Positions 5,622 to 29,630 of a DNA stretch of 64,000 nt are shown piece after piece (positions within the stretch are counted from its first letter, which is position 1; each line of letters opens with the position of its first letter). The stretch comes from Anaeroplasmataceae bacterium (GTDB lineage Bacteria; Bacillota_I; Bacilli_A; Acholeplasmatales; JAEDCM01): positions 15,703-79,702 of the forward strand of contig JAEDCM010000003.1 in assembly GCA_016294165.1 (NCBI GenBank), in the 5' to 3' direction. Under the pieces are notes generated by a model, which ran no database searches, was not told the origin of the DNA, and saw only the letters and a list, made by a program, of their open reading frames with translations. The translations under genes were made by a program, and so were the position numbers.

Positions 5622-5687
5622 TTTTAGAAATAGATGCAAACGGGCATCTATTTTCTATATATAGCGATATTTTGGAGGTGAATATAA

Positions 5688-6608: not shown

Positions 6609-6612
6609 TAAT

Positions 6613-8184: not shown

Positions 8185-8186
8185 AA

Positions 8187-8240: not shown

Positions 8241-9074
8241 TAACAATTCTTTAATATAAGCTAAGCTTGTTGTCATGCTTTCAAATGGAACACCCTCAAA
8301 TACTAAATATGCATTAGGACAGTTTTCTTTAGCTTTTTTGACAATGTATTTTAAATCCATCATCCCTTCACCTAATCCAACGCGTTTTAATGGTTGTTCA
8401 TTCATTGTGAAGTCTTTTAAGTGGAAAATACGGATCTTATCCTTGAAAAGATCAATACATTCATCAATTATTTGGTGCTGGTATTCTACACTATAATTTT
8501 GTTCATTTAAATAGTTGTAAACATCCACTGTAATAAACATATGACCATTATCGATATCATCTAATAATCTTTTTAATGCTTTTGGTTGGTAGATGCAATG
8601 ACCATCAGCACCTTCGATACAAATGTTAGAATTTACTTCCTTAGCATAGCTGATGATATCTGTAAAAATTCTTTTAACCTCTTGATAAGCTTCTTCGGTA
8701 CGGTTTAAAGGATTATATGTCCATTTGTCATCATTGAAAGAACCAGTTTCAGTCCCAACATATAAAGTGTTAAATTTATGGGCAAATCTTAAATGATCTT
8801 TAAATTTTAAAATGTTTTTATTTACTGTCTCTTTGTTAGAATGAACAGGGTTAAAGTATGACCCAATAAGTGGAATGATTAATCCTTCATCGCTAAAGGC
8901 TTTAGCCATTTCATCTAATCTTTCATCGCTCATACTACCAGCCTGAGCAGTCTCATTGATAATGCATTTATTGATTGCTAATTGAAGACCATCAAAGCCT
9001 AATTCTTTGATTTTTTTCGCTAATGTTTTTTCATCAGTTTTTCCAACATCATGGGCTCTAACTATAATTTTCAT
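8235..9074 (-). CDS. Sugar phosphate isomerase/epimerase (xylose-isomerase-like TIM barrel)
   Basis: 279 aa, TIM-barrel isomerase/AP-endonuclease-2-like composition; function inferred from family-level resemblance only. Confidence 0.55.
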   Translation of the reverse strand: MKIIVRAHDVGKTDEKTLAKKIKELGFDGLQLAINKCIINETAQAGSMSDERLDEMAKAFSDEGLIIPLIGSYFNPVHSNKETVNKNILKFKDHLRFAHKFNTLYVGTETGSFNDDKWTYNPLNRTEEAYQEVKRIFTDIISYAKEVNSNICIEGADGHCIYQPKALKRLLDDIDNGHMFITVDVYNYLNEQNYSVEYQHQIIDECIDLFKDKIRIFHLKDFTMNEQPLKRVGLGEGMMDLKYIVKKAKENCPNAYLVFEGVPFESMTTSLAYIKELLK

Positions 9075-9155
9075 ATTTATATCTCCTTATATTTTTGTTA
9101 TAATTATATTATAATTCTTTTAATTTAGATTTTCAAATAAAATAGAGGTGAGAAT

Positions 9156-10673
9156 ATGCAACTTGATGTTTTATTGGTTACACAAACGAGTGTTTCTTTA
9201 GAAATAATCAATGATTATCCATATTATACAAATGGATTATATAATGTGTATTTAAATGATAAATTAGTTTTAAAAAATAGAAAAACTAATGTTTTTTCTT
9301 TGTATAAATTAAAACCAAATACAGATTATAAGATAAGTGTTAAATTTGATAATGAAGCCATTTCTACAAACTTTAAAACATTATATGAAGAGGTTTGCTT
9401 GAATGTTTTAGATTTTAATGCAAAAGCGGATGGTACTAAGGATGATACTTTAGCAATTCAAGCGGCGATCATGGCTTGTCCAAGAAATGGTCGAGTATTT
9501 ATTCCAAAAGGAAAATATTTAATAACATCGTTATTTTTACGTGATGATGTCAGTATTGAATTATCAAAAAATGCAGTTTTAATTGGAAATGTTAATCGTA
9601 ATGATTATCCAATATTACCAGGTTTAAAGAATAATTGTTACTTAGGAACATGGGAGGGGTCTCCGGATTTAGCTTTTACGAGCATTATTACGGGAATAAA
9701 TGTTAAAAATGTTTTGATTTATGGATTAGGAGTTATCGATTGTAATGCACAAAATGGAGATTGGTGGGTTAATCATCGAGAAATGCGCATTGCGAGAAGA
9801 CCTAATGGGATATTTTTAAACAATTGTGAAAATATTTCATTTCAAGGTATCACTGTAAAAAATACGCCATCATGGAACCAACACCCTTTTTTTAGTCGCA
9901 ATTTAAAATATATTGATATATCTTTATTAAGCCCTAAGAATTCCCCAACAACTGATGGAATTGATCCGGAAAGCTGTGATAATGTATTGATATGTGGAGT
10001 GAAGATTAGTGTTGGTGATGATTGTATTGCGATTAAGTCTGGTAAATTAGCAATGGCAAAAAAATTTAAAACACCTTCTAGTAATATTACAATTAGAAAT
10101 TCTTTGATGAAATATGGGCATGCTGGTGTGACCATTGGAAGTGAATTGTCTGGAGGCATTAATAACATAAATGTGAATAAATGCGTTTTTTATAAGACTG
10201 ATCGTGGATTAAGAATTAAGAGCCAAAGAGGTCGCGGAAAGGATGCAATTGTTAATAATGTTAAATTTGATAATATTGTTATGAATAATGTTTTATGCCC
10301 ATTAGTTATTAATATGATGTATAAGGCTGGTAGTGATAAGGGTAATGAGGAGCGTTGGAGTGGTGAAAAACAATCAGTGACATCCCTAACTCCAAGCCTT
10401 GGGACCTTTGAGTTTAATAATATAAAAGCAACCAATATTGAATGGGGTGCTGGTTATTTTTGGGGATTAAAAGAAAGCCCAATTAAAAAAATAATTATTA
10501 ATAATTCTAGTTTTGTGTTCAAAAACAAAGCTAGAGGGGGTATAATAGCCATGAGTCTAAAAAATAACTACTGTAAGAAACAGGGGTTAACGTTTATAAA
10601 TGTTAAAAATTATGAATTGAATAATGTCTATATTGATGGACAAAAGGGAGAAAAAATAATAGAGGTGAAATAA
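9156..10673 (+). CDS. Glycoside hydrolase family 28 (polygalacturonase/exo-poly-alpha-galacturonosidase), cytoplasmic
   Basis: LNVLDFNAKADGTKDDTLAIQAAI (pectate-lyase-superfamily N-terminus of the beta-helix), GDDCIAIKSG and RIK motifs of GH28; no signal peptide. Confidence 0.75.
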   Translation: MQLDVLLVTQTSVSLEIINDYPYYTNGLYNVYLNDKLVLKNRKTNVFSLYKLKPNTDYKISVKFDNEAISTNFKTLYEEVCLNVLDFNAKADGTKDDTLAIQAAIMACPRNGRVFIPKGKYLITSLFLRDDVSIELSKNAVLIGNVNRNDYPILPGLKNNCYLGTWEGSPDLAFTSIITGINVKNVLIYGLGVIDCNAQNGDWWVNHREMRIARRPNGIFLNNCENISFQGITVKNTPSWNQHPFFSRNLKYIDISLLSPKNSPTTDGIDPESCDNVLICGVKISVGDDCIAIKSGKLAMAKKFKTPSSNITIRNSLMKYGHAGVTIGSELSGGINNINVNKCVFYKTDRGLRIKSQRGRGKDAIVNNVKFDNIVMNNVLCPLVINMMYKAGSDKGNEERWSGEKQSVTSLTPSLGTFEFNNIKATNIEWGAGYFWGLKESPIKKIIINNSSFVFKNKARGGIIAMSLKNNYCKKQGLTFINVKNYELNNVYIDGQKGEKIIEVK

Positions 10674-10675
10674 GT

Positions 10676-11605
10676 ATGGTTGTAACAATTAAGGATTTAC
10701 ACAAGACCTATAAAGGTGGAAACAAGGCCCTTAACGGCTTATCTTTAGAGGTTAGAGAAGGAGAAATTTTTGGGCTTCTTGGCCCAAATGGTAGTGGTAA
10801 GACGACCGCAATCAATTGTTTATTGTCATTATTAAAATATGATAGTGGAGAAATTAAAGTTTTTGATACAGAAATCTCTCCTGACAATTATGAAATTAAG
10901 AAGAACATTGGTGTTGTTTTTCAAAATGTGGCGGTTTTTGATGAATTAACGGTATATGAAAATATTGATTATTTTTGTGGATTATACATCAAGGATAAAC
11001 AATTAAGAAAACAATATGTTGCGGAGGCTATTAGTTTCACATCACTTGAGGGTTATGAAAAATTTCGACCTAAAAAGCTATCTGGTGGTTTATTAAGACG
11101 CTTAAACATTGCTTGTGGTATTGCTCATAAGCCAAAGCTGATTATTCTTGATGAGCCAACAGTTGCGGTTGATCCACAATCAAGAAATAGCATTTTAGAA
11201 AAAATTGTTGAATTAAAGAATCAAGGATCAACTATTATATACACCTCACATTATATGGAAGAGGTTGAACAAATTTGTGATTATATCACGATTATTGATA
11301 AAGGAAATGTCATTGCTCATGGCACAAAGGAAAAGTTGAAATCAATGATTGATTTAGAGGAAACAATTGGTGTTGAAATCAATGATATTAAGCCTGAATA
11401 CTTAGAATTATTTAAAGATTTCCTTCATGCCGAAATTGTGGATAAAAAGGTAATCAAAATAAAATGCAATAATACTGATCATAATATTGTATCAGTTCTT
11501 AAGATTCTTCAAGATAATAATATTAGCTATGGAAGAATTTATTCAGAACGCCCAACATTAAACGATGTCTTCCTAGAGTTAACTGGAAAGGAACTTCGTG
11601 ATTAA
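10676..11605 (+). CDS. ABC transporter ATP-binding protein (ABC-2 type)
   Basis: Walker A GPNGSGKTT, LSGG signature, Walker B ILDEPT. Confidence 0.85.
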   Translation: MVVTIKDLHKTYKGGNKALNGLSLEVREGEIFGLLGPNGSGKTTAINCLLSLLKYDSGEIKVFDTEISPDNYEIKKNIGVVFQNVAVFDELTVYENIDYFCGLYIKDKQLRKQYVAEAISFTSLEGYEKFRPKKLSGGLLRRLNIACGIAHKPKLIILDEPTVAVDPQSRNSILEKIVELKNQGSTIIYTSHYMEEVEQICDYITIIDKGNVIAHGTKEKLKSMIDLEETIGVEINDIKPEYLELFKDFLHAEIVDKKVIKIKCNNTDHNIVSVLKILQDNNISYGRIYSERPTLNDVFLELTGKELRD

Positions 11606-12705
11606 TGAATGTTTATTTAAACCGTTTGAAATGTATTTTAAGAAATAAAGCAACAGTATTTTGGACATTAATTTTTCCAATAATTATGGCTTTGTTATTT
11701 AAAATGGCATTTGGTGATGTATTCACAACTAGTGATTTTAAAACAATTAATGTTGGGGTTATTAATTCAAGCAGTGTTAATACTGATTTGATTACATATT
11801 TAGAATCAGAAACGTTTGGAGAAAAAAAAGCTTTTAAGATTACATATTATGATGAAGAGAGTGAGGATATCCTTTCAAAAGAAGAAGGATATTTAAGATT
11901 TGGCACTGAGATTGATTTAGTTATTAAAGAATCAGGTATCAATCAAAATATTATCAAATCATATGTAGATGGATATCTACAAACAACCGATCTAGTTTAT
12001 AATGTTATATCGATTACCGGTAATATTGGTGTTTTAGATGAATTATCAAATTATGATCGCTATGTTTTAAATAGAACAAAGGATATTGATTTGATTATGA
12101 ATTACTTTTACACTCTAATTGCTATGAGTGTAATGTTTGGTTGTACCTTCTCATTAGAGGATTTACATGCTAGTGAGGCAAATATGTCAGATGTTGGAAA
12201 GCGTGTTAATATAGCGCCTACTCACAAGTTAAAACTATTAGTTTCTAACCTATGTGCATCATTCACGATAATATTTAGTGAAATACTTATTTATTTATTG
12301 TTCTTAAGATTTGCATTAAATGTTGATTTTGGAAACAATGCTTTAATAATTTTAGGAGTTGTAGTTATTGGATGCCTTAATAGTCTATTATTTGGACTAT
12401 TTGTAGGTGTATTAATAAAGGGAAGTGAAGCATTTAAAAATGGTATTGTAACGGGTATTGTTTTATTTATGTGTTTCCTATCAGGTATGATGATGGCCAC
12501 AATTAAATTTACCATTTATGAGAATGCTAAATTCCTGCATTATTTAAATCCATGTAGCTTAATTACTGATAGTTTATATATGATTTATATTGATCAAATT
12601 GATGAAAGATTTGTTGGAAATATAATTGCTTTAGGAGGATTGTCAATAATCTTCTTGGTGGTAAGTTACATTAAATTAAGGGGGCGTAGATATGAGTCTG
12701 TATAA
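11605..12705 (+). CDS. ABC-2 family transporter permease
   Basis: 366 aa, N-terminal TM then large extracytoplasmic loop then 5 TM; overlapping start/stop with the upstream ATPase. Confidence 0.65.
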   Translation: MNVYLNRLKCILRNKATVFWTLIFPIIMALLFKMAFGDVFTTSDFKTINVGVINSSSVNTDLITYLESETFGEKKAFKITYYDEESEDILSKEEGYLRFGTEIDLVIKESGINQNIIKSYVDGYLQTTDLVYNVISITGNIGVLDELSNYDRYVLNRTKDIDLIMNYFYTLIAMSVMFGCTFSLEDLHASEANMSDVGKRVNIAPTHKLKLLVSNLCASFTIIFSEILIYLLFLRFALNVDFGNNALIILGVVVIGCLNSLLFGLFVGVLIKGSEAFKNGIVTGIVLFMCFLSGMMMATIKFTIYENAKFLHYLNPCSLITDSLYMIYIDQIDERFVGNIIALGGLSIIFLVVSYIKLRGRRYESV

Positions 12706-13944: not shown

Positions 13945-16608
13945 TTATTTTGTAAAAATATTTTGTATATTTTTAAATACCATTTTTGCTTCAGATGCGA
14001 TTGATTCATCATCACTTTCTAGTAATGTTAATTTTAGTTTAGTTTCTCCGTTTTCATAAGATATATAAATCGAAGAATTCCTATAAATATATAAAGAGGC
14101 TTCTCTTGTGAAACCAACTTGTTGTAAAAAAATTACTAAACCTTCTGTGGTTCCATATTCTACGTATTCATACCAATCATTTTTAAGATGTTCAATTTTT
14201 TTTATTTTTTTGTATTGGCTTGAGAATTTGTGAAAATAATTAGAAAACTTAAAGAGAATAATACGCTCAATTTCTTTTAAAGTATCATTGATGAGTTTAT
14301 TACGATGAAGTTTGGAATCATTATATGGTACATCTTTATACCATGGAAATGGTTCAATTTCTTTTTCTTCTTTAGTTTTGGCAAATCTTAGTGTCATTTC
14401 ATTTTTAGGGTTACTGTAGTAAGAGATTGAATCGTTTATTATTTCATTTATTGTCAATCCATATAGCCATTTATTTAGTGCAACCGCATGTCTCTTAATT
14501 ATAGGATGTTCTCCATAATAATTAATATTACCAGCTAATGATTTATCATATTTATCCCAATTAAAAATATAACATAATTGTTCTAAAAAATTTACTATAT
14601 CGTCATATCTTGTATCTGAATGTAGAGATGGATATTCTAAACCTTTTTCTATAGCGTTATTAAGTCTAATAACTTGATCTAAAGATGTGTTTATATCATC
14701 ATCAATATGTTCTTTAAATGATGAAAATTGCTCATTAATTTCATTTCTAACATTACCTTGAAGATAAGTACTAAACTCATTAGTAATCAAGGTATCTTTA
14801 TTATCTATAATATCTTTTAATAAAATTAACGTGTATCTTCTGACTATATCAAATTCTCCAGTTGGTATAAAATCTGGTCTATCAAAATTAACAATTCCTT
14901 CTTTTAATTTTTCAACAATAAAACACTTATATTCATCTTTTAAAGAAGAAGTAACAGATAGTTTTTGTTTTGCTATTTTTTTCTGAATTAGATCTTGGAA
15001 AGTATTTATTTGAGAAGAATCATTTATAACTGCAAATACATTGCCATATAGATTGTACTTAATTCTTCCAACTCTACCTATTAAATTTTTAAATTCAACA
15101 GATGTAAAGTTTTTTTTCCCATTTTCATAACTTAATATAAATAAATTATCAGCTGGAAGATTAATTCCTTCAATTAATGTACTAGTACAAAATAATGTAT
15201 GGATAATATTATTTATATATAACTTTTCTATTTTCAATCTAACAGAAGTACTTAAATTACCTATGTGATAAGCTACACCTTTTTTTACTAAATCAGCCAA
15301 ATAAATAGATTGATGAATTTCTTTTTTTATATATTCAGATAACTCTATTAGTTCCTTGTATCCACGTTCATTTGGATTAATGTAATCCAAGTTTTTAGAG
15401 AATTCTAAAGCTAAATCTTGAACATCAGAAATTTTATTAGCATAAATAAGATTTTGGATATTATTATTTGAAAATATTGTTGATTTGATTAGTTGAAAAT
15501 AATCAATTTCCTCATTTAAAGTTATTAAATCAACAAAATTATTTGTGTATTGGTTGTAAAAACTAATAGTATTATTTGTTTTATTGATAATATATTGTAC
15601 TTGATTAACCGGTGAATAAACAGTGTGAATATTGTTACTGATATATTCTGATTTTAGGTTTTTATTAGATATTAAATTAAGATATATTTCAGGATTTGGT
15701 ATATTTGGTGAAGCAAAATAAATATGAGCATCAGGATTTAAATCTAATGACATATTTATTACTTTATAGTAAAATGAACTTCTAATGTCTGTATCGGAAA
15801 TTTTATGAGCTTCATCTATAAATAAATCATGAATAATTGAAGATTTTTGCATCAATAAATATAATAATCTTTCTGGGGTTAAAATAAATACATAATTACT
15901 TTTTTCATTTACTATTGGAGTGCTAGCTGAAGTAATCACTTTATAGTTATACTCGTGCAAGTAATCTCCAAAATCATCAATTGCAGTCCTATATATATCA
16001 TTAATTAATGATTTACTTGGGACTATAATTGCATAGTTCTTTTTAATACCCTTTAGGATTTCATTTTTTATTTTAACAAGCATAATAAATGTTTTACCTA
16101 AGGAAGTTTTTCCAGAATAACTAAAGTATTTATGATTTAATGAATCATAAATTTGTTTTTGATTTATGAAGAAATACTTATTATTTTCATTAGGTATTTT
16201 TAATACTTCTTTTTGCAATTCATCAAAAATTTTATCTTTTAAATTTAAGTGTTTATAGTCCGGAAGTTTGTTAGCTATTCCTTGATAATTGCCTAAGTTA
16301 GATAAAATATTTCCAACAATATTTCTAACATCTTTATTGTCAAAATACTGATTTAGGGTTAATATTGCAATTTCTTGTCCCCATTGGCGATATAAGTCTT
16401 CATTTTTCACATATGAAGCTTTTGATAGAATATCAGCAAATTGCAATGCATGTAATGGATTATATTGTTCATGTTCATTTTGTAATTTTAAAGTGTCGAT
16501 TAAATTATTATAAATTATTCTTTCATATATAGTAATTAGATAATCGTTTTTTTCTAAATTATCATATAAAGTTTCTCTGATACTTTTTGCCATATTTTTA
16601 TTCTCCAA
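13945..16608 (-). CDS. DEAH-type superfamily-2 helicase, HamB-like (candidate Hachiman-type defence helicase)
   Basis: Motif I SGKTSLGKTF, motif II LFIDEAHKIS (DEAH), motif VI IGRVGRIKYN; 887 aa with about 370-aa non-helicase C-terminal extension; very AT-rich; translationally coupled to the upstream 434-aa gene. Confidence 0.55.
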   Translation of the reverse strand: MENKNMAKSIRETLYDNLEKNDYLITIYERIIYNNLIDTLKLQNEHEQYNPLHALQFADILSKASYVKNEDLYRQWGQEIAILTLNQYFDNKDVRNIVGNILSNLGNYQGIANKLPDYKHLNLKDKIFDELQKEVLKIPNENNKYFFINQKQIYDSLNHKYFSYSGKTSLGKTFIMLVKIKNEILKGIKKNYAIIVPSKSLINDIYRTAIDDFGDYLHEYNYKVITSASTPIVNEKSNYVFILTPERLLYLLMQKSSIIHDLFIDEAHKISDTDIRSSFYYKVINMSLDLNPDAHIYFASPNIPNPEIYLNLISNKNLKSEYISNNIHTVYSPVNQVQYIINKTNNTISFYNQYTNNFVDLITLNEEIDYFQLIKSTIFSNNNIQNLIYANKISDVQDLALEFSKNLDYINPNERGYKELIELSEYIKKEIHQSIYLADLVKKGVAYHIGNLSTSVRLKIEKLYINNIIHTLFCTSTLIEGINLPADNLFILSYENGKKNFTSVEFKNLIGRVGRIKYNLYGNVFAVINDSSQINTFQDLIQKKIAKQKLSVTSSLKDEYKCFIVEKLKEGIVNFDRPDFIPTGEFDIVRRYTLILLKDIIDNKDTLITNEFSTYLQGNVRNEINEQFSSFKEHIDDDINTSLDQVIRLNNAIEKGLEYPSLHSDTRYDDIVNFLEQLCYIFNWDKYDKSLAGNINYYGEHPIIKRHAVALNKWLYGLTINEIINDSISYYSNPKNEMTLRFAKTKEEKEIEPFPWYKDVPYNDSKLHRNKLINDTLKEIERIILFKFSNYFHKFSSQYKKIKKIEHLKNDWYEYVEYGTTEGLVIFLQQVGFTREASLYIYRNSSIYISYENGETKLKLTLLESDDESIASEAKMVFKNIQNIFTK

Positions 16609-17902
16609 ACATTAGTTTTGTATACAACTCAGAAGTAGTATCATCAATGCTATTTAATGGTAGAAGATAAATATAAAAAGAATAATTATTTAAATTCAAA
16701 TCAATAATTTTTTTCTCAATACATTCTTTTGCAACTTTAAAATCATGTTCATATTGTTCTTTAAATTCTTTCATAATATTAGGTTTAGAAATATCTAATT
16801 TAAAAGTATATCCTATAAAAACTCCAAATGCATTTGGCCCTCTTAATGGACGATCAGTTAAATCTTCTGGTTTAGGTAAAAAAATACTTTTAATATCAAC
16901 ACCTTCAGGAAGGGTATAATCTAAACATTCTTCAGATAATAAATTTATTTCTTTATGAGAATTATTTTTTATTTTTATCACTTTCTCAAATGCTCTATCT
17001 ATTGCCTCTTTTATATTATTTAGTGCACAGGAGGATCCAAAAACTATATCAAATTGAGGCTCACTATTGATGATTGGTAATCTGTGTATATGAATTCCAT
17101 CTGAATATGAATGGACATTAATATCATCTAGTTGTATTTTACTCATTATTTTAGGAGCATTTAATGAAGCTTCTAAAAAAATATACAATAGCATCTCACT
17201 TAATTGTTTTGCTTTATCACCAATTGACATTCTTTTTAATACTTTTTGTAGTGATTCTATAGCAATTAAGTCATTTATTTTGTTGTTTTTAGCTTTAATA
17301 GTAACATAATTTTTAATGTTATCATTTATTAATTTAAACATATCTTCTTGATTGAATTTAAATGCAGAAGAATCAAAATTTAGTATATATATAGATATTT
17401 TTTGGTTTTTATTAGGTGCAAATGTGTATTGATTTTTCAGATAAAATGTTTTGTTGAATTCATCTTTTTTAACTGAGACATCTAGTATTTCTTTTTTCTT
17501 TGTAATTCTTTTTTGAGAAGCAATATTTCTTAGAACATTAGATAAATCAGCGGATAATTTATTTACTATATCATTAGTAGTTTTTTCCTTTCTTAATCCA
17601 AGCGCAGAGCCTAACTCTATTAATCTATTCTCATTAATATGTTCTGTTAAATAGATTTCAACCTTTTTATTATTAATATTTATTAGATTTTTAGCATCCG
17701 CAGCAGATAAAGGATTATTGTCAAAATATCTATTTAGAGTATTTTTATCCCATTGAAGAACAGGGATTGATGGGTCGTTCTTGTCTACAACATAATTAAA
17801 AAAATCTTTTATGAATTCTCCTTGCCCTAATTCTGGAATAAAATGATATAATAATAAAATTAAATTTTTAAATTCTTCTTGATGTTTAGTCATTATATTC
17901 AC
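16598..17902 (-). CDS. Hypothetical protein, partner of the helicase (possible HamA/DUF1837-like effector)
   Basis: 434 aa, no recognisable ATPase motifs, 11-nt overlap with the downstream helicase start, AAGAAGGTGAA RBS; role assigned only from gene context. Confidence 0.3.
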   Translation of the reverse strand: MNIMTKHQEEFKNLILLLYHFIPELGQGEFIKDFFNYVVDKNDPSIPVLQWDKNTLNRYFDNNPLSAADAKNLININNKKVEIYLTEHINENRLIELGSALGLRKEKTTNDIVNKLSADLSNVLRNIASQKRITKKKEILDVSVKKDEFNKTFYLKNQYTFAPNKNQKISIYILNFDSSAFKFNQEDMFKLINDNIKNYVTIKAKNNKINDLIAIESLQKVLKRMSIGDKAKQLSEMLLYIFLEASLNAPKIMSKIQLDDINVHSYSDGIHIHRLPIINSEPQFDIVFGSSCALNNIKEAIDRAFEKVIKIKNNSHKEINLLSEECLDYTLPEGVDIKSIFLPKPEDLTDRPLRGPNAFGVFIGYTFKLDISKPNIMKEFKEQYEHDFKVAKECIEKKIIDLNLNNYSFYIYLLPLNSIDDTTSELYTKLMFGE

Positions 17903-18184
17903 CTTCTTTTTAACTTACTGTAGCTTACGAACACTTACTAACGCTTTCAGTTGCATTTGTAGATTTATTGATTTATAAGTGTTATAATTTATTTGAAAAG
18001 GAAATTATTTTGTATATTTATTTAGATTATACCAATTTTTTCTAAAATCCTCAATTGGTCATTTATTTAAATAAAAGAATAATTATCTTTTTATAAAAAT
18101 TAGGCTTTGGTGGGCTAAAAAAACACCAGAATTTAATACTTGCAATATCCTTAGGAGAACCGCGCGGTGTAATGAACCGTTTGA

Positions 18185-18248
18185 GACGGGCGGAAAGAAA
18201 AACATATTAAATTATGTTAAGTCTTTCTGCTCGTCTTTTTGTTTTTTT
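18185..18248 (+). terminator. Strong intrinsic terminator ending a non-coding element upstream of the sigma-like gene
   Basis: 13-bp stem gacgggcggaaag/ctttctgctcgtc (two G-U pairs) enclosing an internally palindromic loop, followed by tttttgttttttt. Confidence 0.7.
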
Positions 18249-18304
18249 AAGGATGTGCAGGTACTTTCTAGGGATTTGCATTTATTAATTCGAAAGGATT
18301 ATAA

Positions 18305-18739
18305 ATGAAAAAAGACACAAAAATTGTTAAGCTACAAGTTTCTAGGAAGAACTATGAATTTATTGAAGTAAAAGATGATAATGAATTGAAATTAATTGAA
18401 GAACTGAATCGTGATTTTTATAGATTCGAAAAAAGTCAAGAAAGATTAAGAAGAAAATCTGTTTCTTGCGATAATCTTTTAGAAGATTATAAATATGAGA
18501 TTCCATCTATTGAAAATGACCCATTTGAAAAAGTGGTAATTGTAAAAAGGAATAAAGCTTTGTATGATGCTATAAATTCTTTAGAAGAAATAGAAAAAAA
18601 GATTTTTATTTTAAGAGCAAGTGATGAAATGTCTTTTAATTCTATTGCTAATAGTGTTAATTTGTCAAAGACCGCTGTAATAAAAAAATATAATGCTATT
18701 ATTTTGAAACTTCATTATTTATTAAAAGATTATATGTAA
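18305..18739 (+). CDS. Sigma-70 region-4-like HTH protein (minimal alternative sigma / TcdR-UviA-like or Tn916 Orf7-like regulator)
   Basis: C-terminal LYDAINSLEEIEKKIFILRASDEMSFNSIANSVNLSKTAVIKKYNAIILKL fits the sigma-70 region 4.2 HTH pattern; 144 aa. Confidence 0.5.
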   Translation: MKKDTKIVKLQVSRKNYEFIEVKDDNELKLIEELNRDFYRFEKSQERLRRKSVSCDNLLEDYKYEIPSIENDPFEKVVIVKRNKALYDAINSLEEIEKKIFILRASDEMSFNSIANSVNLSKTAVIKKYNAIILKLHYLLKDYM

Positions 18740-18755
18740 TCTACTTCTATACATA

Positions 18756-18788
18756 GGCAAATTTTGAGGATTATTTGCCTTTTTTTTA
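18756..18788 (+). terminator. Intrinsic terminator after the sigma-like gene
   Basis: ggcaaat/atttgcc hairpin followed by a T9 run. Confidence 0.7.
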
Positions 18789-19125
18789 TTCTTTGGTGTT
18801 CAAAATGCCATCTAAGTGTCCAGTACTATTGTAGGGATAAGCTTACACGTCCTTTGATAACTGTTATGGCGCCTAACATTTATCAAATTTGGACAATCCA
18901 TAAGGAGGTGGTTCCTATGATTTAGGTTGTGATCAAAAAGGTAGTAAATATTAAATATAGAGTACTAATTGGTAGTAAAAAAAAGAAAGAAATAGTGCTA
19001 CAAAAATGATCGAAATTTTAAAAAACTTGATATTGATTAGGGCTGCGTATGATTAATTATGCATTATAGCACTAAGGTTAAGCTCTTACCAAAATAGAGT
19101 AAAAAAATTATAAGGAGAATAAAAA

Positions 19126-19821
19126 ATGAAAGTAACATTAAAAGAAAAAGCGCAAGCAAATTTATGGAAATTAAGAAAGGCAAATGAATCAAATTTCACC
19201 GAATATTACATTTTAGAGGCAGATAATAATGTAATTGATGAGGGAACAGAGCTAAATGAGGAATTTTATGAAAAGATTAATTATAATGATGAAGCGATTA
19301 TGGGTTTAACCATCAATAATGAGGTAACAGCTTTACCAAATGCAAAAGCCTTACAAGCTCAAATTGTATTATTACCAAATGGAGAAATCTGGGTAGTACC
19401 ACCACAAAATAAAGGAGTTAAATACAAACTAGAAGAAAGAGAAGTTTTATTTGAGGGTAATAGAACCTTAACCACAAATACAACACTAACATGTAGTAAG
19501 TCATTATATGGAAGTGGATTTAAAAGTATGATGATTGAGGTTTATAAAGATAATACAACATACGAAGATTGTACAGATTATATCTATGAAGGAAACACAA
19601 GACATTATGTTGAGATCATTGATGAAACGATAAATGATGGAGATTCATTTTATAATGAGTTTAGTTTTATCACAAAAATTGATAATGAATCAATTGAATG
19701 GATTAGCGGAAATGTAAATGGTAATAATGTAGTGCTTAGGGCGTATAAGAGAATTTTTTCAACAAATACAGTTGTTAGTGTATCAAATGGTTTCCATATA
19801 AGAATTACGGGGGTTAAATAA
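19126..19821 (+). CDS. Hypothetical protein, first gene of the Rhs toxin operon
   Basis: 231 aa, no signal peptide or TM; stop overlaps the start of the next gene (TAATG). Confidence 0.5.
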   Translation: MKVTLKEKAQANLWKLRKANESNFTEYYILEADNNVIDEGTELNEEFYEKINYNDEAIMGLTINNEVTALPNAKALQAQIVLLPNGEIWVVPPQNKGVKYKLEEREVLFEGNRTLTTNTTLTCSKSLYGSGFKSMMIEVYKDNTTYEDCTDYIYEGNTRHYVEIIDETINDGDSFYNEFSFITKIDNESIEWISGNVNGNNVVLRAYKRIFSTNTVVSVSNGFHIRITGVK

Positions 19822-20078
19822 TGGAATACATTGAGCTGTTGTCAATAATTTTTATAATACTAGGAATAATATTAGGATTATTTAAAAAAAGAAAATCATT
19901 GGCGTTAGTAAAAGTATCTAAAAAAATGCTAGAACTAATAGATGAAGTAAAGGATACAGAAAAAAGTAAAAAAGAAAAAGAGGAATATGTTCTAACTAGT
20001 CTAATAGAATATACGCTTGAGGAAAGTATCACATATATAGAAGAAGAGGGAAAAGAAAATGAAGAGAAAGATGTTTAA
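19821..20078 (+). CDS. Small single-pass membrane protein with acidic C-terminus (possible holin-like/release or accessory factor)
   Basis: 85 aa; IELLSIIFIILGIILGLF TM helix then KKRK and a Glu/Lys-rich tail; coupled on both sides. Confidence 0.4.
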   Translation: MEYIELLSIIFIILGIILGLFKKRKSLALVKVSKKMLELIDEVKDTEKSKKEKEEYVLTSLIEYTLEESITYIEEEGKENEEKDV

Positions 20079-23000
20079 AATTGATGATAATTTAAATGTA
20101 GAGTTATCAAAAGGTTTATTAAATCTAAAGCTTAATGATATCAGCACAGCTGGTATCATTCCTTTAGAAATAGCCCATGTTTATAATAAAAATGTTAATA
20201 GAGGATATGGGTATAATTTTAATATGAGCACCGATATTACAATTAAAGATAATGAAATAACGTATCCTGATGGTCATAAAGAAGAGATTAAAGAGAGCAT
20301 TTACTATATCAAAGAAGGGAAAAGGACATATGAAAAAGAAGATGGAAGCAAACTTACAAAAGAAGATTTAACAGAGGTAAGTAATGGATATAAATATTTA
20401 GATTATGATGCTTATATAGAATTTAAAACAGATGAAGGATATATATTAAGCCAGTCAACTCATGAGAAATTTGAGGAAAGAAATGAAGAATATGTGGCAC
20501 AGGAATTAAGGTGTAGTGAGTTAAGACAAGCATTAGAGGAACTTAAATATAATCGTGTAGAGATGACAAAATATTTAGATTTAGAAGTTCCAGAAGGATA
20601 TACTTCATATGAATCAGTTGGAGAAGAATTATATAATGCAAGAGATGATTATTACAATTTTACAAATAAGGAAAAGGTAGAAAATACTTATGGACTAACT
20701 AATGATAAAGAAGCGTCTTTTCCAAGCAACTTTAATATTGATAGTATAACGTTTGAAAACACTGATGAATCTGTGCAATACTTGCCAAAAAATCCTATTA
20801 GTAAGCGATTATTTGAATTAAATCATATATCGAGTTATGGGTTTCCTAACATTCCGCTTAAATTTAATTCTTTTGAAGATTATCAAAAAGAAATGTATGG
20901 TTTAAATGATTTATATAACTATTATTTAGGAGAGATTGAAAGTAGAATTGGTGAAAGTAATCAAATGATTGATAAGGTTTCACATGATAATTTAACTGAA
21001 TATTATAATAAGATAATTGATGAGATTAATTATAAAATATCTTATTATGAGAAGGAATTAAATAAACAAGAAGAAATTTTTCAAGAGATGCAAAAAACAT
21101 TTCCTCAAAAATATTTATACAAGGATGGAAGTATTGTATATGGGTTTAATGTTTTTGGACAGTTGGCGGTTATTTTTGATAAATATGGAAATCAAGTATT
21201 GATTAAATATGATAAAAAAAATAATATTGATGAGATTATTGAAAAGAATAACACAATTAGATTTATATATAAGAACTCTTTACTTTCAAGTATTAAGGAT
21301 GATCACTTAAATGAGATTACATATGAATATGATACTAATGGAAAATTATTAACAATCACAAAAAAGGGAATAAAATCCCAATTGAGCTATAGTAATGAAA
21401 AATTAACTGGAATTGTTCATAATAAAAGAAGGTATAGTATTGGATATAATGGGAATGGAATGGTTTCTAATATTACAAATTTAAGAACAAGTAATGATAG
21501 TTTATCATTTAGTTATGAGCTTACTGAAACAGATAATATTTCAAGTGTAAAAGTAATTAGAAATAAAACAAATGATGAATATATTTATCTATTTAATACT
21601 AAAGAGTGTTATTGTGAATATCAATTAAGAAATAATAGGATGCATAATTTAATTACCCATGAGAATAAAGATAATAAATATGAGCTAGAGGTAAAGGCAA
21701 ATAAGGATTCAAATATTATTTATAGCGGAGTTAATCTAAGTGGAAATGTTAATGTTTGGAATTTAAAGAGAAGAGATTATGTATTAATATGTGATATTAC
21801 AATGGAAAGTGCAGCGATAATTAATAATCAAATTAAGACAAGTATGTTTGAATATATTGAAAATGATTCTAATAAGAGCTTATTTACTGTTGTGGTTGAA
21901 TTGAAATATGATAATGAGACAATTACTTATAAGAATTCATTTGAAAGTGGTATTGGAAGAAAACAGGTAATCATTCCAATTTCTTTAAAAGAAAATTATT
22001 TGAAGGAAGTAGTTATTCCAAATGAATTTGTAATTAGCAGAAATATTCATAGAATAGGATCTTATAAAGTAAATAGTGTTAAGCTTTTTGAATCAAACTA
22101 TAGCTATAAAGAATATGATGAACATAAAAATGTAATTTATGTTTATAATAGTGAAGAAAAGCTACCAATGCTTGAAGGTAACGATTATGCATATATTAGT
22201 AGTGATATTAATTATACATATGATGATTATAATAGATTATTAAAGGAAGAAAAAATAATTCATTATAAATATTTAGAAAGAAAAGAGGATAAAAGTGAGG
22301 TTAGAGAATACTTTTATAATAGTTTAGGAAGGTTAGCTAGAAAAGAGTATAAGGATATAGTTACTAAATATACATATGATGAATATGGACAAGTTATTAA
22401 AGAAGAGATGTATCATTTTAGTAATCCAGTAAATAAGTATTGTAAGGAATATGTTTATAATGAATCAGGATTATTAATTAAAGAAATCATTGATGGTAAT
22501 GAAAATAATATAAGCTATAATAAGGATAGTAATCTTATAGAAAAAGATGATGATTATGTTTATGGATATGATAAATATAAAAATCTAATTGGAATTACAA
22601 GTTCAAAAAACAGTAATAATTATAACTTACAAGAGATAAAAAATGGCCTTATCATGAGCAAATCTAGTCCAACAAATAAATATAATTATACATATGATAG
22701 TATGGATAGATTAATTAAGGTTGAAGGAGAAAATGTATTAATTGAATATCAATATCATGATGAAGAGTTTAAAGAAATTATTAATTGTAATTCTTTAAAA
22801 ATCATTAATATTAAAGACAAATATGATAAGTTATTAAGCACTGAATATTTAAAGGATGATATAAGAATTGGATTTGTTAATTATACATATGAAGATGATT
22901 TATTATTAAGTGTGTATGAAGAAAATAATGATTATGAAAATCAAACTTCTTATGAATATTTTGATAAAAAATTAAAAAGATTATCAAAAAATGATTATCA

Positions 23001-24744
23001 AATCACTTACAAAAATGATTATTATGATAATATAGTTGAAATTAATTATGAATTTGAAGATGATTCATTGAGTTATGAATATGAATATGAAGAGGAATTA
23101 TTAAAAAGAATTAGTGTCTTAGATTTTAATAATGAAATAGCATATGATGATTTAAAAAGAATCAAAAAGGAAACACTTAATAATATCACAAAGGAATATT
23201 ATTATGAATCAACTTTAGGAAATGTCACAAATAGGATCATTGGAATCAAGGAAGTAATTAATAATAGTGTTTCATATAAAAAATATAAGTATGATGATTT
23301 AGGAAATATTATTGAGATTAATGATGGGAATAAAGTAAGCTATGTATATGATAGTCTAGGACAATTAATAAGAGAAAACAATAAGAATCTAAATAAGACG
23401 GTTATTTATGAATATGATAATAATGGTAATATAATATTAGAATATAAATATGATTATACATTAGATGATAATCTTGAAAATGAAGAGATAAAGACGTATA
23501 ATTATGATAAAGATAAGCTTATTAAATGTAATGATTTAGAGTTTATTTATGATGATTTAGGAAATATTATTAGTTATGATAATAATAGTTTAGAATATGA
23601 AAATAATCATTTAAGTAGATTTAATAATATAAGCTTTAAATATGATTTAAGTGGAAATAGGATCAAAAAGATTATTGGGAATAAGGAACATAGATATGTA
23701 TTAGAAGATGATAAGATTCTAAAAGAAATTATTAGAACTTATACAAATTTTAATGGACAAGCATATTCTAAAGATGAAATATTATATTTATATGGTCATA
23801 ATGGAATAATTGGATTTAAATATAATGAAGAAGAGTATCATTATAATAGAAATATCCTTGGAGATATTACTGAGATTTACAAGGGAAATGAATTAGTAGG
23901 AAAGTATGAATATGATGCATGGGGAAAACATAGTGTAGTATTAGATATAAATGGAATAGCAAGTATTAATCCATTTAGATATCGAGGATATTATTATGAT
24001 GAAGAGAGTGGACTTTATTGGTTACTTTCACGTTACTATGATCCTAGTATTGGTAGATTCATAAGTCCAGATAGTGTGAATTATTTAGATTCTCAAAATA
24101 TCAATGGATTGAATTTATATTCTTACTGTGGAAACGATCCAATAAATCGATTCGATCCAACAGGTCATTCTTGGGAATCGTTCTGGAATGGTGTTGGAGA
24201 TTGGTTTAGCTATCATTTGAAGGAAGTTGTGATTGGAACAGCATTTATTGTCGGTGGAGCATTGGTGACAGCTTTTACAGCAGGAGCTGGAGTAGGATTT
24301 ATGGCCGCATTTGGAAGTGCTTTGTTGTCATCCACAATTCAAGTTGGAATAAGTGTTGGTACAAGTGTTTTAGTCGGAGGTCTCGTATCTGTAGCAAATG
24401 GAGGCGGTTTCTTTGACAATGTCGGTGATAATATAGCCAGTGCATATATGTGGGGTGGTATTTTCTCTGGTGGTGCGCAAATTCTTGGTGGTGGTTTTAG
24501 AATTGCTGCTAATAAAGGAGTAACTACAGGTAGAGCAGGCGGAATCAAACTTGGTAATTCCGGTGTGAAAATATTGTCTCCAGATAAAAATAATTGGGCC
24601 AAAGCAGGCGGAACATTAATTAAATTCGGTAATGGCTTTAGAATCGATACAGGTGCTATGTGGGGATTGCATATGCACATACTAAGTTCTGGACATCTTC
24701 CAATTGGTGCTGTTATTGCAGGATTTATTGGAACAGAGTATTAA
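20059..24744 (+). CDS. Rhs/YD-repeat polymorphic toxin with C-terminal glycine-zipper hydrophobic toxin domain
   Basis: Many YD-repeat units (YxYDxxGNxI pattern throughout). Rhs shell start motif at residue about 20 (LNLKLNDISTAGIIPLEIAHVYN...GYGYNF). Conserved Rhs core end RYYDPSIGRFISPDS and DPxG motif (NRFDPTGH) at 24154..24165. A 192-aa Gly-rich hydrophobic CT follows (24166..24741). Confidence 0.85.
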   Translation: MKRKMFKIDDNLNVELSKGLLNLKLNDISTAGIIPLEIAHVYNKNVNRGYGYNFNMSTDITIKDNEITYPDGHKEEIKESIYYIKEGKRTYEKEDGSKLTKEDLTEVSNGYKYLDYDAYIEFKTDEGYILSQSTHEKFEERNEEYVAQELRCSELRQALEELKYNRVEMTKYLDLEVPEGYTSYESVGEELYNARDDYYNFTNKEKVENTYGLTNDKEASFPSNFNIDSITFENTDESVQYLPKNPISKRLFELNHISSYGFPNIPLKFNSFEDYQKEMYGLNDLYNYYLGEIESRIGESNQMIDKVSHDNLTEYYNKIIDEINYKISYYEKELNKQEEIFQEMQKTFPQKYLYKDGSIVYGFNVFGQLAVIFDKYGNQVLIKYDKKNNIDEIIEKNNTIRFIYKNSLLSSIKDDHLNEITYEYDTNGKLLTITKKGIKSQLSYSNEKLTGIVHNKRRYSIGYNGNGMVSNITNLRTSNDSLSFSYELTETDNISSVKVIRNKTNDEYIYLFNTKECYCEYQLRNNRMHNLITHENKDNKYELEVKANKDSNIIYSGVNLSGNVNVWNLKRRDYVLICDITMESAAIINNQIKTSMFEYIENDSNKSLFTVVVELKYDNETITYKNSFESGIGRKQVIIPISLKENYLKEVVIPNEFVISRNIHRIGSYKVNSVKLFESNYSYKEYDEHKNVIYVYNSEEKLPMLEGNDYAYISSDINYTYDDYNRLLKEEKIIHYKYLERKEDKSEVREYFYNSLGRLARKEYKDIVTKYTYDEYGQVIKEEMYHFSNPVNKYCKEYVYNESGLLIKEIIDGNENNISYNKDSNLIEKDDDYVYGYDKYKNLIGITSSKNSNNYNLQEIKNGLIMSKSSPTNKYNYTYDSMDRLIKVEGENVLIEYQYHDEEFKEIINCNSLKIINIKDKYDKLLSTEYLKDDIRIGFVNYTYEDDLLLSVYEENNDYENQTSYEYFDKKLKRLSKNDYQITYKNDYYDNIVEINYEFEDDSLSYEYEYEEELLKRISVLDFNNEIAYDDLKRIKKETLNNITKEYYYESTLGNVTNRIIGIKEVINNSVSYKKYKYDDLGNIIEINDGNKVSYVYDSLGQLIRENNKNLNKTVIYEYDNNGNIILEYKYDYTLDDNLENEEIKTYNYDKDKLIKCNDLEFIYDDLGNIISYDNNSLEYENNHLSRFNNISFKYDLSGNRIKKIIGNKEHRYVLEDDKILKEIIRTYTNFNGQAYSKDEILYLYGHNGIIGFKYNEEEYHYNRNILGDITEIYKGNELVGKYEYDAWGKHSVVLDINGIASINPFRYRGYYYDEESGLYWLLSRYYDPSIGRFISPDSVNYLDSQNINGLNLYSYCGNDPINRFDPTGHSWESFWNGVGDWFSYHLKEVVIGTAFIVGGALVTAFTAGAGVGFMAAFGSALLSSTIQVGISVGTSVLVGGLVSVANGGGFFDNVGDNIASAYMWGGIFSGGAQILGGGFRIAANKGVTTGRAGGIKLGNSGVKILSPDKNNWAKAGGTLIKFGNGFRIDTGAMWGLHMHILSSGHLPIGAVIAGFIGTEY

Positions 24745-24761
24745 TTCAGGAGGGAATATAA

Positions 24762-25169
24762 ATGGAAAAACAAATTATGATAAAACACTCATATAGTGAT
24801 AGAACTTTAAAAATTAAAAATACTATTAGCTATTTAGAACTATTTGTTGATTCATTGAGTGATAAAATTGTTATTAACTGTTGCTTGAATGTAAATCAAT
24901 CTAAAATTATTGATGAAATAATGCGTTTGAAGCATTCGGGTATTGTTGATAGCTTTAATTTAGAAATAGACAAAAAACATTATAACTTTAATATTACTAC
25001 TAGTATGGATAATGTTATACACATTCTTAGTCTTATAGAAAATTATGAACTAAATGTTATGATTTATTGTAATGGTATAAAAATGTTTATTAATGATAAT
25101 GACGGTGATTTTATCATAATTAATTCAAACCATGGAAAATATAGTATGATTAAAAACAAAAATAATTAA
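24762..25169 (+). CDS. Putative cognate immunity protein (hypothetical, soluble)
   Basis: 135-aa ORF with GGAGG RBS 17 nt after the toxin stop; role inferred from position only. Confidence 0.35.
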   Translation: MEKQIMIKHSYSDRTLKIKNTISYLELFVDSLSDKIVINCCLNVNQSKIIDEIMRLKHSGIVDSFNLEIDKKHYNFNITTSMDNVIHILSLIENYELNVMIYCNGIKMFINDNDGDFIIINSNHGKYSMIKNKNN

Positions 25170-25203
25170 CACAAATTTGCAAATTACTTTCACAAGCAAA
25201 ACT

Positions 25204-25242
25204 AGGTGAGTTTACCTTTGGGTAAGCTTACCTTTTCTTTTT
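25204..25242 (+). terminator. Intrinsic terminator closing the toxin/immunity operon
   Basis: 12-nt perfect palindrome ggtaagcttacc (plus the overlapping aggtgag/cttacct pairing) followed by ttttcttttt. Confidence 0.6.
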
Positions 25243-25482
25243 ATAAAATGAGATTTAAATGATAACATATATATATATTAATTTACATGTTTTTTGAGGA
25301 AATTATGATATAACTTTAGTACAATTATTTGAAAAAAATAGAAAGTAGTGGTGAAGATAATTTGGGATTTAAAAGTTATTGTTGAAACATTGGGACAACA
25401 AGTTTTAGAGTTGATCAATTAAACTATAAAAATGAGTGTTAATTAAGATATTTAAATGAATATGCTATCAAAACTTAAATAT

Positions 25483-25518: not shown

Positions 25519-25850
25519 AATCATTGAAATTAAGATAAAGTATATCCATTGAATTACCTGAAAAAGTAAAAGTTAGTTAGCTAATTAAAAAAATTTCTTG
25601 ATTATGATTTATAAAAGGAATATAATATCAAATAGAGATTGTGAAAAAGAAGTAGTAACTACAAGATGCAAGGCTTTAGAGAGAACCTGTCACCGGCTGA
25701 AAGCAGGTTTAGATACGCTAGTAGTGAATTCACCTTTGGAGTCTAATCGTATTCCTGCGTTAAAGGATTTGAGGGCTAGATTTATTCTAGAACTAAGGTG
25801 GTACCGCGTATTTTACGTCCTTAGATTTATTCTAAGGATTTTTTTTATTA
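25519..25850 (+). promoter_or_regulatory. T-box riboswitch leader (tRNA-Phe-responsive) of pheST
   Basis: AGAGA box (tagagagaacc), conserved T-box sequence aactaaggtggtaccgcg at 25791..25808, followed by terminator hairpin ccttaga/tctaagg plus a T8 run at about 25817..25845. Confidence 0.8.
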
Positions 25851-29361: not shown

Positions 29362-29630
29362 AAATAGCAAAGGTTATGATTGGGACGAGTAATTTAGTGT
29401 ATTCCTTTGTAGAGAGCTATCATTTGGTGAAAGATAGTAAGGAGCTTAAATGAATATCACCCATAAACTGTCTTCTGAAATTATAGTAGGAAAGAACGGC
29501 TGATGTCCGTTATGTCATCTAGTATCTATTTTATAGATATCAACAAGGTGGTTATCGAGAGATAACAATTAGAGTGGTACCGCAGAACAGTATGGTTTTG
29601 TCTCTTTGAGATGAAACCATTTTTTTATAG
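29362..29630 (+). promoter_or_regulatory. T-box riboswitch leader of the ilv-leu operon
   Basis: AGAGA box (gtagagagc), T-box sequence aattagagtggtaccgcag at 29568..29586, terminator atggtttt/aaaccat plus a T7 run at 29592..29627. Confidence 0.75.

Follow-up and report, generated by a model that had tools for sequence, protein, structure and literature searches.

A candidate phage-derived release-and-targeting module beside a signal-less Rhs toxin gene in an Anaeroplasmataceae chromosome

Rhs/YD-repeat toxins without an export signal pose the question of how so large a protein leaves the cell that makes it and finds the cell that it attacks. In Gram-positive bacteria both the exit and the targeting of such toxins are largely open, the known routes being Sec-dependent export of the WapA type and export of LXG proteins by the type VII secretion system (T7SS), with secretion through a type VI system (T6SS) serving in Gram-negatives. 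The question is raised by a cassette in a stretch of 64,000 nucleotides (nt), here called the window, from an Anaeroplasmataceae bacterium (GCA_016294165.1, contig JAEDCM010000003.1), in which the gene for a 1561-amino-acid (aa) Rhs protein is preceded by genes for a 144-aa regulator, a 231-aa protein and an 85-aa membrane protein, and followed by a gene for a 135-aa putative immunity protein. A preliminary description of the locus had read it as a Rhs polymorphic-toxin cassette whose product, lacking a secretion domain of its own, might be released by the small membrane protein in the manner of a holin. The analysis reported here points to a chromosomal, self-contained module of domesticated phage descent that would release and target an antibacterial Rhs toxin, a reading to which we give a probability of about one half. 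The set that recurs has five genes, for a helix-turn-helix (HTH) regulator, an adaptor resembling a phage receptor-binding protein (RBP), a holin homologue of the LL-H type, a Rhs protein with a short N-terminus and a characteristic insert, and an immunity protein.

The Rhs protein has a YD/RHS shell (RHS_repeat PF05593, E 5.1e-15; TIGR01643, E 2.5e-11) that ends in a Rhs-associated core (Rhs_assc_core TIGR03696, E 1e-21, residues 1285-1370). The motifs of the core are RYYDPSIGRFISPD (RYYDP...GRF) and then PINRFDPTGH, a DPxG-type autoproteolysis motif placed before the toxin domain, where cleavage is predicted. Pfam and NCBIfam searches gave no match to a signal peptide, LXG, PAAR, prePAAR, VgrG-binding or wall-binding domain; the sole N-terminal match is a weak, sub-threshold one to DUF6531 at residues 14-75, and hydropathy shows no hydrophobic N-terminal segment. 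The open reading frame (ORF) cannot be extended, because an in-frame TAG lies at 20038-20040, 18 nt 5′ of the ATG, and the two enclose a GAGGG ribosome-binding site, 8 nt upstream of the ATG; the position of the start is also kept within a few residues in six homologues from other organisms. The protein therefore lacks an N-terminal secretion domain, as first described, and neither an upstream start nor a frameshift brings a trafficking domain to light. A programmed frameshift that would fuse the 85-aa membrane protein to the Rhs protein was rejected, since a +1 frame is involved without a slippery heptamer, the TAG and a good ribosome-binding site precede the Rhs start, and the two genes are separate in relatives.

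The candidate for an exit route is the 85-aa protein, which is, on the evidence of homology, a shortened relative of the LL-H holins (Phage_holin_6_1, PF09682) and would be expected to form membrane lesions. Its transmembrane (TM) segment covers residues 1-24 and is followed by a charged tail with 13 Lys and Arg and 18 Asp and Glu residues, which is the LL-H layout. Counterparts in four related loci (L006, L008, L011 and L012) score above the gathering threshold of PF09682 (25.0-36.3 vs 24.9 bits) and also match the holin family phrog_6918, and the 85-aa protein is tied to these counterparts by hhalign against their alignment (probability 95.3%, E 2.2e-8), by blastp against the L006 and L008 proteins (E ~1e-6) and by a local hidden Markov model (HMM; E 1.5e-6). 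A charged cytoplasmic tail of ~70 residues is conserved in the holin homologues. LL-H holins match no other holin model searched, and the protein lies outside the TcdE and UviB/BhlA families. The gene is joined to both of its neighbours, by a TAATG at 19818-19822 that forms the stop/start junction with the 231-aa gene and by a 20-nt overlap with the Rhs ORF at 20059-20078. These junctions, the five ORFs and the terminator were all correctly placed in the preliminary description, and the idea of holin-type release through the small membrane protein gains support from a domain search that leads, by way of the relatives, to a phage holin family.

The 231-aa protein, which carries no signal peptide, supplies a candidate for targeting. 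A word-indexed search with it returned its own species only; HMMER, run exhaustively over 1.84 billion representatives, returned 16 relatives. The N-terminal ~105 residues (the N-domain) are common to all 16; in five relatives (400-438 aa) the similarity extends to the C-terminal ~125 residues, with an extra, fibre-repeat-like part in the middle, and the remainder (214-604 aa) have unrelated C-termini, so that the family resembles RBPs in keeping its N-terminus while its C-termini vary. It has no Pfam or PHROG assignment. In an AlphaFold2 (AF2) model built from the alignment of 16 sequences (predicted local distance difference test, pLDDT, 78), the N-domain (residues ~1-105) is followed by a C-terminal beta-sandwich domain, and the best structural matches are phage RBPs, including T5 pb5, T7 gp17, the phi812 baseplate RBP and phage K gp144, together with FtbP, a side fibre of the Listeria monocin tailocin. 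The top four were unchanged with Foldseek against the PDB (E 2e-6 to 9e-4), and a search of BFVD gave Twort ORF024 and Brochothrix phage A9 gp49. With the three structural searches in agreement, the modelled fold is of the RBP type, and where the preliminary description had considered this protein for delivery or release, the fold points to targeting besides release. Another candidate identity, a split-off N-terminal domain (DNRLRE type) from long Rhs homologues, was dismissed when phmmer against 86 Rhs homologues gave nothing significant.

The two genes upstream of the Rhs gene are conserved partners of it in distant relatives, which answers the concern that they might be unrelated neighbours. 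Among loci recovered through the relatives of the 231-aa protein, the order fibre-like gene, holin gene and signal-less Rhs gene is seen in 6/6 unrelated bacterial loci with enough sequence (L006, L008, L011, L012, L013 and L015; Table 1), with 30-38% identity in the fibre N-domain and with start and stop codons that overlap or abut. The L012 cassette is flanked by rplM/rpsI and metabolic genes. Four of the cassettes have an extra gene between the fibre-like and holin genes, for a protein of 125-139 aa that has no family match, is absent from the window and may be a fibre assembly chaperone. In an independent test, two Rhs proteins with short N-termini were picked by Rhs similarity alone, and one of them (P0065, in locus L019 of GCA_964323185.1) has upstream genes for a sigma-4-like protein of 111 aa, an N-domain protein, a 234-aa protein and a 143-aa LL-H holin whose gene ends 1 nt before the Rhs start. 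L019 has some features of its own. It contains a fragment of 60 aa with exactly the sequence of the L015 fibre-like protein's N-terminus, which is probably the remnant of an exchanged adaptor; the 234-aa protein between the N-domain gene and the holin gene is GT_PLOD-like; and the Rhs protein continues into PT-HINT and a different C-terminal domain.

The Rhs proteins of these loci form a subfamily, with a common start, a plug-like region and, ahead of the first YD repeats, a helical insert of ~200-300 residues; this N-terminus with its insert is conserved in L006, L008, L012, L013, L015 and the archaeal locus L017. The first ~700 residues of the window Rhs have relatives only in the bacterial and archaeal loci described here. 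The rest of the shell is more widely shared, at ~30% identity over residues 700-1370 with many Rhs proteins of 1.6-2.2 thousand aa, and the closest database relatives, which align over residues ~700-1370 only, are DNRLRE-domain Rhs proteins of Clostridia and Bacilli, of 2.0-2.2 thousand aa and with ~500-700 extra N-terminal residues. The helices of the insert are hinted at by its composition and by a low-confidence, single-sequence AF2 model (pLDDT 36, unusable as a structure). In another strain of the same species (P0002, locus L001) the insert has an in-frame deletion of 351 nt (117 aa), corresponding to window positions ~20579-20929 and bounded by a 7-nt repeat; this is either natural variation in length or an artefact of assembly.

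The N-domain is also found in archaea. A profile search with the N-domain identified stand-alone N-domain proteins of 136-179 aa on archaeal contigs (MCM, aIF2-gamma, S6e, NMD3; GC 47-48%), followed in L016, L017 and L018 by LRR_5 or Gp10_C fibre-tip-like proteins. At L017 and L018 a gene for a 136-aa N-domain protein and then one for a leucine-rich repeat (LRR) protein are divergent from the gene for a 1842-aa Rhs protein, which has an N-terminus and helical insert of the window type and a C-terminal domain rich in Gly, and is followed by a 117-aa TM protein; neither locus has a holin gene. The archaeal loci suggest that the pairing of adaptor and Rhs protein crosses domains of life.

The opposite end of the Rhs protein is exchanged together with its immunity gene. 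The C-terminal toxin domain (CT) contains 21% Gly and gave no family match and no match in a PDB sequence search, and the 135-aa protein matches no Pfam, NCBIfam or PHROG family and is soluble, with no TM segment by hydropathy. Two Rhs proteins with N-termini different from that of the window, one of 1995 aa in L004 (an uncultured Bacillales) and one of 1876 aa in L005 (Bacilli bacterium HGM10900), have shells merely 54-59% identical to that of the window, and yet their CTs are 97% (L004) and 98% (L005) identical and the 135-aa immunity ORFs 86% and 99% identical to it. In blastn, L005 matches at 94.6% over 1500 nt and L004 at 89.7%, with the rest of the shell devoid of DNA similarity; identity to L005 begins at 23965, inside the Rhs core, and runs through the CT, the immunity gene and the terminator to 25461. 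Window positions 25362-25460 are a decayed 5′ fragment, with its start lost and two stops, of a 656-aa gene that lies 3′ of the immunity gene in L005, so the module appears, from this trace, to have been imported with flanking DNA from an L005-like locus. L004 in addition carries an orphan pair of core-CT and immunity gene. A variable CT with a cognate immunity gene that moves between scaffolds in this way is classic behaviour of polymorphic toxin modules, and it bears out the original reading of the cassette as one of them. The hydrophobic, Gly-rich half of the CT points to insertion into membranes or to a role in entry. The immunity proteins of pure pore-formers usually sit in the membrane. 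With a soluble immunity protein, the last ~85 residues of the CT may form a separate effector.

L004 and L005 have release-type genes of another kind. The long-N-terminus Rhs of L005, of the DNRLRE type like that of L004, is likewise signal-less, and its start is overlapped by the gene of a Hol44-family holin (PF16079, 37 vs 29.2 bits); the locus also encodes, before the Rhs gene, a phage-associated protein of phrog_1863 with a TM segment and a coiled coil. A holin that is unrelated to the LL-H type, and yet stands beside a Rhs protein with the same CT and immunity gene, is on this homology evidence a case of apparent convergence. In L004 a 175-aa multi-TM coiled-coil protein is encoded before the long-N-terminus Rhs, and linkage of holin and Rhs genes may be general in the long-N-terminus Rhs group of Bacilli.

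Gene anatomy, homologies, conserved gene order and the exchange of CT and immunity gene are observed in the sequences, and the functional steps are inferred from them. Taken as a mechanism, the module would work as follows. The HTH regulator would switch on the operon, and the Rhs protein would fold in the cytoplasm into a YD-repeat cocoon around the CT, with the 135-aa protein protecting the producer. Exit through the holin homologue is proposed because the Rhs protein has no export domain; the translationally coupled LL-H-type homologue would permeabilise the membrane, and since the cassette encodes no peptidoglycan hydrolase, a 175-kDa cocoon would most likely get out when the cells that express it lyse, so that release would most likely amount to the permeabilising or lysing of a subpopulation of producers. 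That the N-domain is conserved while the C-domains vary, and that it is paired with this Rhs subfamily in bacteria and archaea, suggests that the 231-aa protein docks on the Rhs protein by its N-domain, possibly at the helical insert, and the variable C-domain would then bind the target cell surface in a role like that of TcA or a tail fibre. The CT, Gly-rich and hydrophobic, probably acts on or through membranes. A bolder version is tentative and, to our minds, somewhat doubtful. It holds that docking of the N-domain on the insert and release by the holin yield an extracellular particle of adaptor plus cocoon, guided by a phage-type RBP and independent of any secretion system, in gut Bacillota and, by horizontal transfer and without the holin, in archaea, with the range set by swapping of the C-domain (fibre, beta-sandwich or LRR) and the killing by swapping of CT and immunity gene.

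Several points weigh against the proposed release-and-targeting module, which is drawn here from sequence and predicted structure. The 85-aa protein of the window has no direct match to PF09682 or another Pfam holin model (E up to 10) or to a PHROG holin, and it is ~15 residues shorter than its relatives in the hydrophobic stretch. No endolysin or peptidoglycan hydrolase gene was found in the cassettes of the window, L012, L015 or L019, and with no hydrolase beside the holin the cassette cannot be counted as a type 10 secretion system (T10SS), which pairs a holin with a hydrolase; cell lysis would be needed to account for the passage of a 175-kDa cocoon across a Gram-positive wall. Many of the related loci are short metagenomic contigs, and the second Rhs protein of the independent test (P0012, L020) has neither a holin nor a fibre gene nor a regulator alongside. 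The fold of the 231-aa protein comes from an AF2 model of just 16 sequences with TM-scores of 0.32-0.41, no sequence relatives of its family could be detected in phages, and co-occurrence is the basis on which the N-domain is proposed to dock onto the insert. A soluble immunity protein leaves the activity of the toxin uncertain, and the regulator shows no signal of homology to the regulators of related cassettes.

Whether the producer must die is the matter on which the nearest rival differs. The holin homologue could be a non-lytic export or anchoring device, with the Rhs and fibre-like proteins passed or held at the membrane of living cells for contact killing like that of WapA or contact-dependent inhibition (CDI) systems. 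No single-TM holin is known to let a folded cocoon of 175 kDa through without forming lesions, and a Gram-positive wall would still stop a particle of ~10 nm. The missing endolysin in every cassette and the tight translational coupling of holin to Rhs gene would fit export, as would the conserved charged tail, which could bind cargo, and holin-dependent non-lytic secretion has been discussed for TcdE and others (PMC9527704, PMC10516005); the best-studied cocoon toxin, however, is released by lysis (PMC10847048), and we consider non-lytic export unlikely. It is improbable, too, that the cassette is a decayed prophage whose leftover fibre and holin genes have no functional link to a Rhs/immunity moron at the former endolysin site, the Rhs protein being freed by ordinary lysis or by an unrelated system. 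Phage late operons usually close with tail fibre, holin and lysin in that order, phrog_1740 and phrog_36 are phage-type relatives of the regulator, and the low-GC island beside a defence system would suit a remnant of this sort. Such a remnant does not account for an arrangement that at least seven unrelated bacterial loci have kept at 30-38% identity, stop codons overlapping the next start, nor for the persistence of the N-domain-Rhs pairing in archaea without a holin. Further phage genes are also missing, in that the flanks of the window, L012 and L019, which are complete, contain no phage structural, replication or lysin genes, and these three loci have no tail genes that would identify the adaptor as part of a phage tail, the cassette being without baseplate or sheath genes as well. 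Searches of phage sequences agree with this. The cassette had no blastn match in phages; in IMG/VR, neither two N-domain alignments nor the regulator nor one holin picked up any relatives; tblastn of two fibre-like proteins against 50,697 GenBank phages found none, the regulator being without relatives there as well; and the holin subfamily had one marginal match among GenBank phages. The parts of the cassette are phage-derived in family or fold and now make up a distinct, cassette-specific lineage.

Two other readings change the victim. As an abortive-infection or anti-phage module, the cassette would use the RBP-like protein as a sensor or decoy and kill the infected cell with the holin and the Rhs protein, which the 135-aa protein would otherwise restrain. 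A Hachiman system immediately adjoins the cassette in the low-GC island, and L006 is flanked by genes with MC2 and CTD6 domains, which we take to be domains of conflict systems. The idea is nonetheless quite improbable, given that no PADLOC model matches any cassette protein, that the exchange of CT and immunity gene and the orphan modules of L004 are hallmarks of interbacterial polymorphic toxins, and that an autoproteolytic cocoon is a delivery device, needless for self-killing. A miniature Tc toxin directed at the animal host or another eukaryote, with the fibre-like protein binding host glycans, would draw on the same logic of cocoon and holin as the Tc toxins (PMC10847048) and would suit bacteria that live in animal guts. 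We see very little chance of it, because a dedicated immunity gene that travels with the CT implies bacterial rather than animal targets, TcA-like and SpvB-like domains are absent, and the closest structural matches of the fibre-like protein are RBPs of phages that infect Gram-positives.

The release-and-targeting module that we favour is, by analogy, closest in logic to a Tc toxin with its T10SS and regulator. YenTc of Yersinia entomophaga is released by a T10SS, through the YenLC lysis cassette under the RoeA regulator, with lysis of a subpopulation (PMC10847048). Tc toxins likewise combine a signal-less YD cocoon and an autoproteolytically released CT with a separate receptor-binding part, a phage-derived holin and a regulator; they differ in that the cassette has a single Rhs chain instead of TcB plus TcC and no TcA pentamer, SpvB or TcB-propeller domains. 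Unlike YenTc and its T10SS, the cassette has no endolysin or spanin, belongs to a Gram-positive host, includes an immunity gene, and pairs its LL-H holin homologue with the 231-aa RBP-like partner. The preliminary description had drawn a loose parallel to the TcdR/TcdE/TcdA-B and UviA/UviB arrangements. TcdA and TcdB of C. difficile are released by way of the TcdE holin (PMC10516005, PMC12150058), and these loci share with the cassette a signal-less large toxin, a small holin-like protein and a sigma-related regulator (PMC10516005, PMC12150058, PMC12485765), so the parallel is apt as an analogy of logic; it fails as membership, since the holin homologue is in neither the TcdE nor the UviB/BhlA family, and the cassette differs further in its regulator without region 2, its single-TM LL-H type, its Rhs cocoon with immunity gene and its RBP-like gene.

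WapA-type, LXG-Rhs (T7SS) and PAAR-Rhs (T6SS) proteins have in common with the window Rhs the YD shell, the DPxG core, a polymorphic CT with immunity gene and module exchange, whereas the window Rhs has no signal, LXG, PAAR or wall-binding domain and instead has the subfamily-specific insert and the linkage to fibre-like and holin genes. The RBPs of Twort-like staphylococcal phages (phi812, phage K gp144) and FtbP resemble the 231-aa protein in predicted structure, with no sequence-level relationship and no tail genes here. The full-text literature, a coverage outside which most subscription journals lie and in which no archaea-specific search was made, yielded no published description of a holin- or fibre-linked signal-less Rhs protein in Gram-positives or archaea. 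If the proposed module is real, the way in which Tc and large clostridial toxins are released, by a holin or in T10SS-like fashion, would apply also to Rhs toxins that gut Firmicutes use against other bacteria, phage receptor-binding modules would have found a new use, and the toxin would be programmable at two points, the C-domain of the adaptor and the CT.

With regard to control of the cassette, the preliminary description had posited a dedicated minimal sigma factor, and this part of it is not supported. The 144-aa regulator scores 22.8 bits against Sigma70_r4_2, under the cut-off of 25.7, and shows no match to sigma region 2 at E up to 0.1. Among NCBIfam models it fits 'positive control sigma-like factor' best (residues 47-127), and it matches the phage sigma factor family phrog_1740 at E 1.9e-9. 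Residues 36-142 align to residues 140-248 of FliA (regions 3-4), and the 35 N-terminal residues that are left offer no room for region 2. It is thus a region 3/4-like part below Pfam cut-offs, not conserved with the cassette, and not a group 5 sigma-70 factor of the TcdR/UviA/BotR/TetR type. Related cassettes have other small HTH proteins, those of L009 and L012 being related to each other. A role for the 144-aa protein as a dedicated transcriptional switch is plausible. Its gene is followed, as read by eye, by a terminator-like hairpin with a T-run (~18756-18788) and hence forms a separate transcription unit; on the + strand between 18790 and 19125 no promoter-like site scoring >=9/12 is listed, a weak piece of evidence that is compatible with dependence on an activator. 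A structured leader precedes the regulator gene (Table 1), with a minimum free energy of -73.5 kcal/mol (z-score -8.4) and a terminator-like hairpin with a T-run at ~18183-18250; it is unique in the window and has no + strand gene upstream, and the candidates for its role are attenuator, leader of the riboswitch kind and small RNA. Rfam gave no match within 17900-19130.

Table 1. Features of the cassette and its surroundings in the window, and the corresponding features of related loci
Sequence	Feature	Position	Strand	Details
Window	HamB helicase	13945-16608	-	887 aa
Window	HamA	16598-17902	-	434 aa
Window	Structured leader	18095-18304	+	
Window	Regulator gene	18305-18739	+	144 aa, sigma-70 region-4-type HTH
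Window	Fibre-like (phage RBP-like) gene	19126-19821	+	231 aa
Window	Homologue of LL-H-type (Phage_holin_6_1) holin, shortened	19821-20078	+	85 aa
Window	Rhs/YD-repeat cocoon toxin gene	20059-24744	+	1561 aa, without trafficking domain
Window	Plug-like region of Rhs	20098-20283	+	residues 14-75, sub-threshold DUF6531
Window	Helical insert of Rhs	20470-21099	+	residues ~138-347, between plug region and YD shell
Window	Rhs core	23911-24168	+	residues 1285-1370, TIGR03696
Window	CT	24169-24741	+	residues 1371-1561, Gly-rich hydrophobic segments at 1387-1447
Window	Exchanged module	23965-25461	+	end of Rhs core, CT, immunity gene, terminator and ~220 nt more; blastn
Window	Putative immunity gene	24762-25169	+	135 aa
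Window	Intrinsic-terminator-like hairpin, operon end	25204-25233 (feature listed to 25243)	+	13-bp stem, 5 GC pairs, then T-run
Window	T-box leader of pheS/pheT	25632-25825		
L006	Cassette			HTH 197 aa; fibre-like 438 aa; holin 114 aa; Rhs with window-type N-terminus; contig ends
L008	Cassette			fibre-like 400 aa; holin 120 aa; Rhs N-terminus with helical insert
L011	Cassette			fibre-like 230 aa; extra 139 aa; holin 198 aa; Rhs N-terminus
L011	Extra protein	824-1243		
L012 (GCA_029057785.1)	Cassette			HTH 104 aa; fibre-like 530 aa; extra 125 aa; holin 113 aa; Rhs 1678 aa; immunity 106 aa
L012	Extra protein	11609-11986		
L013	Cassette			HTH 371 aa, C-terminal part tetratricopeptide-repeat-like by eye; fibre-like 457 aa; extra 129 aa; holin 120 aa; Rhs present
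L013	Extra protein	3199-3588		
L015 (human gut)	Cassette			fibre-like 411 aa; extra 129 aa; holin 120 aa; Rhs 1664 aa
L015	Extra protein	1826-2215		
L007, L009, L010	Partial cassettes			fibre-like present; holin start; contig ends
L017	N-domain, LRR and Rhs genes	3276-11757		
L019	60-aa fibre-like fragment	3297-3479		
L019	GT_PLOD-like protein	4792-5496		234 aa
L005	Hol44-family holin	5610-6212		
L004	Multi-TM coiled-coil protein	5115-5642		175 aa

The cassette lies between a Hachiman anti-phage system, directly upstream on the - strand (13945-17902) and in the same low-GC island, and pheST, whose T-box leader lies downstream of the cassette terminator, so that the cassette ends before it. GC is 22-28% across 14-24 kb of the window and 30-37% in the flanks; a search for flanking repeats as borders of the island gave AT-rich matches at chance level only. 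The genes around the cassette serve chromosomal housekeeping and pectin degradation. With its genes for branched-chain amino acid biosynthesis and its pectinases the window resembles an ordinary Firmicute chromosome, which does not by itself establish a cell wall; a wall-less, Mollicute-like host, which would explain the missing endolysin, was considered and set aside. The pectinase genes, among them a polygalacturonase at 9156-10673 and a pectinesterase-domain protein of 1258 aa at 39245-43021, suggest a pectin-degrading gut Firmicute as the host. A second T-box leader, at 29367-29608, precedes a gene cluster that starts at 29651.

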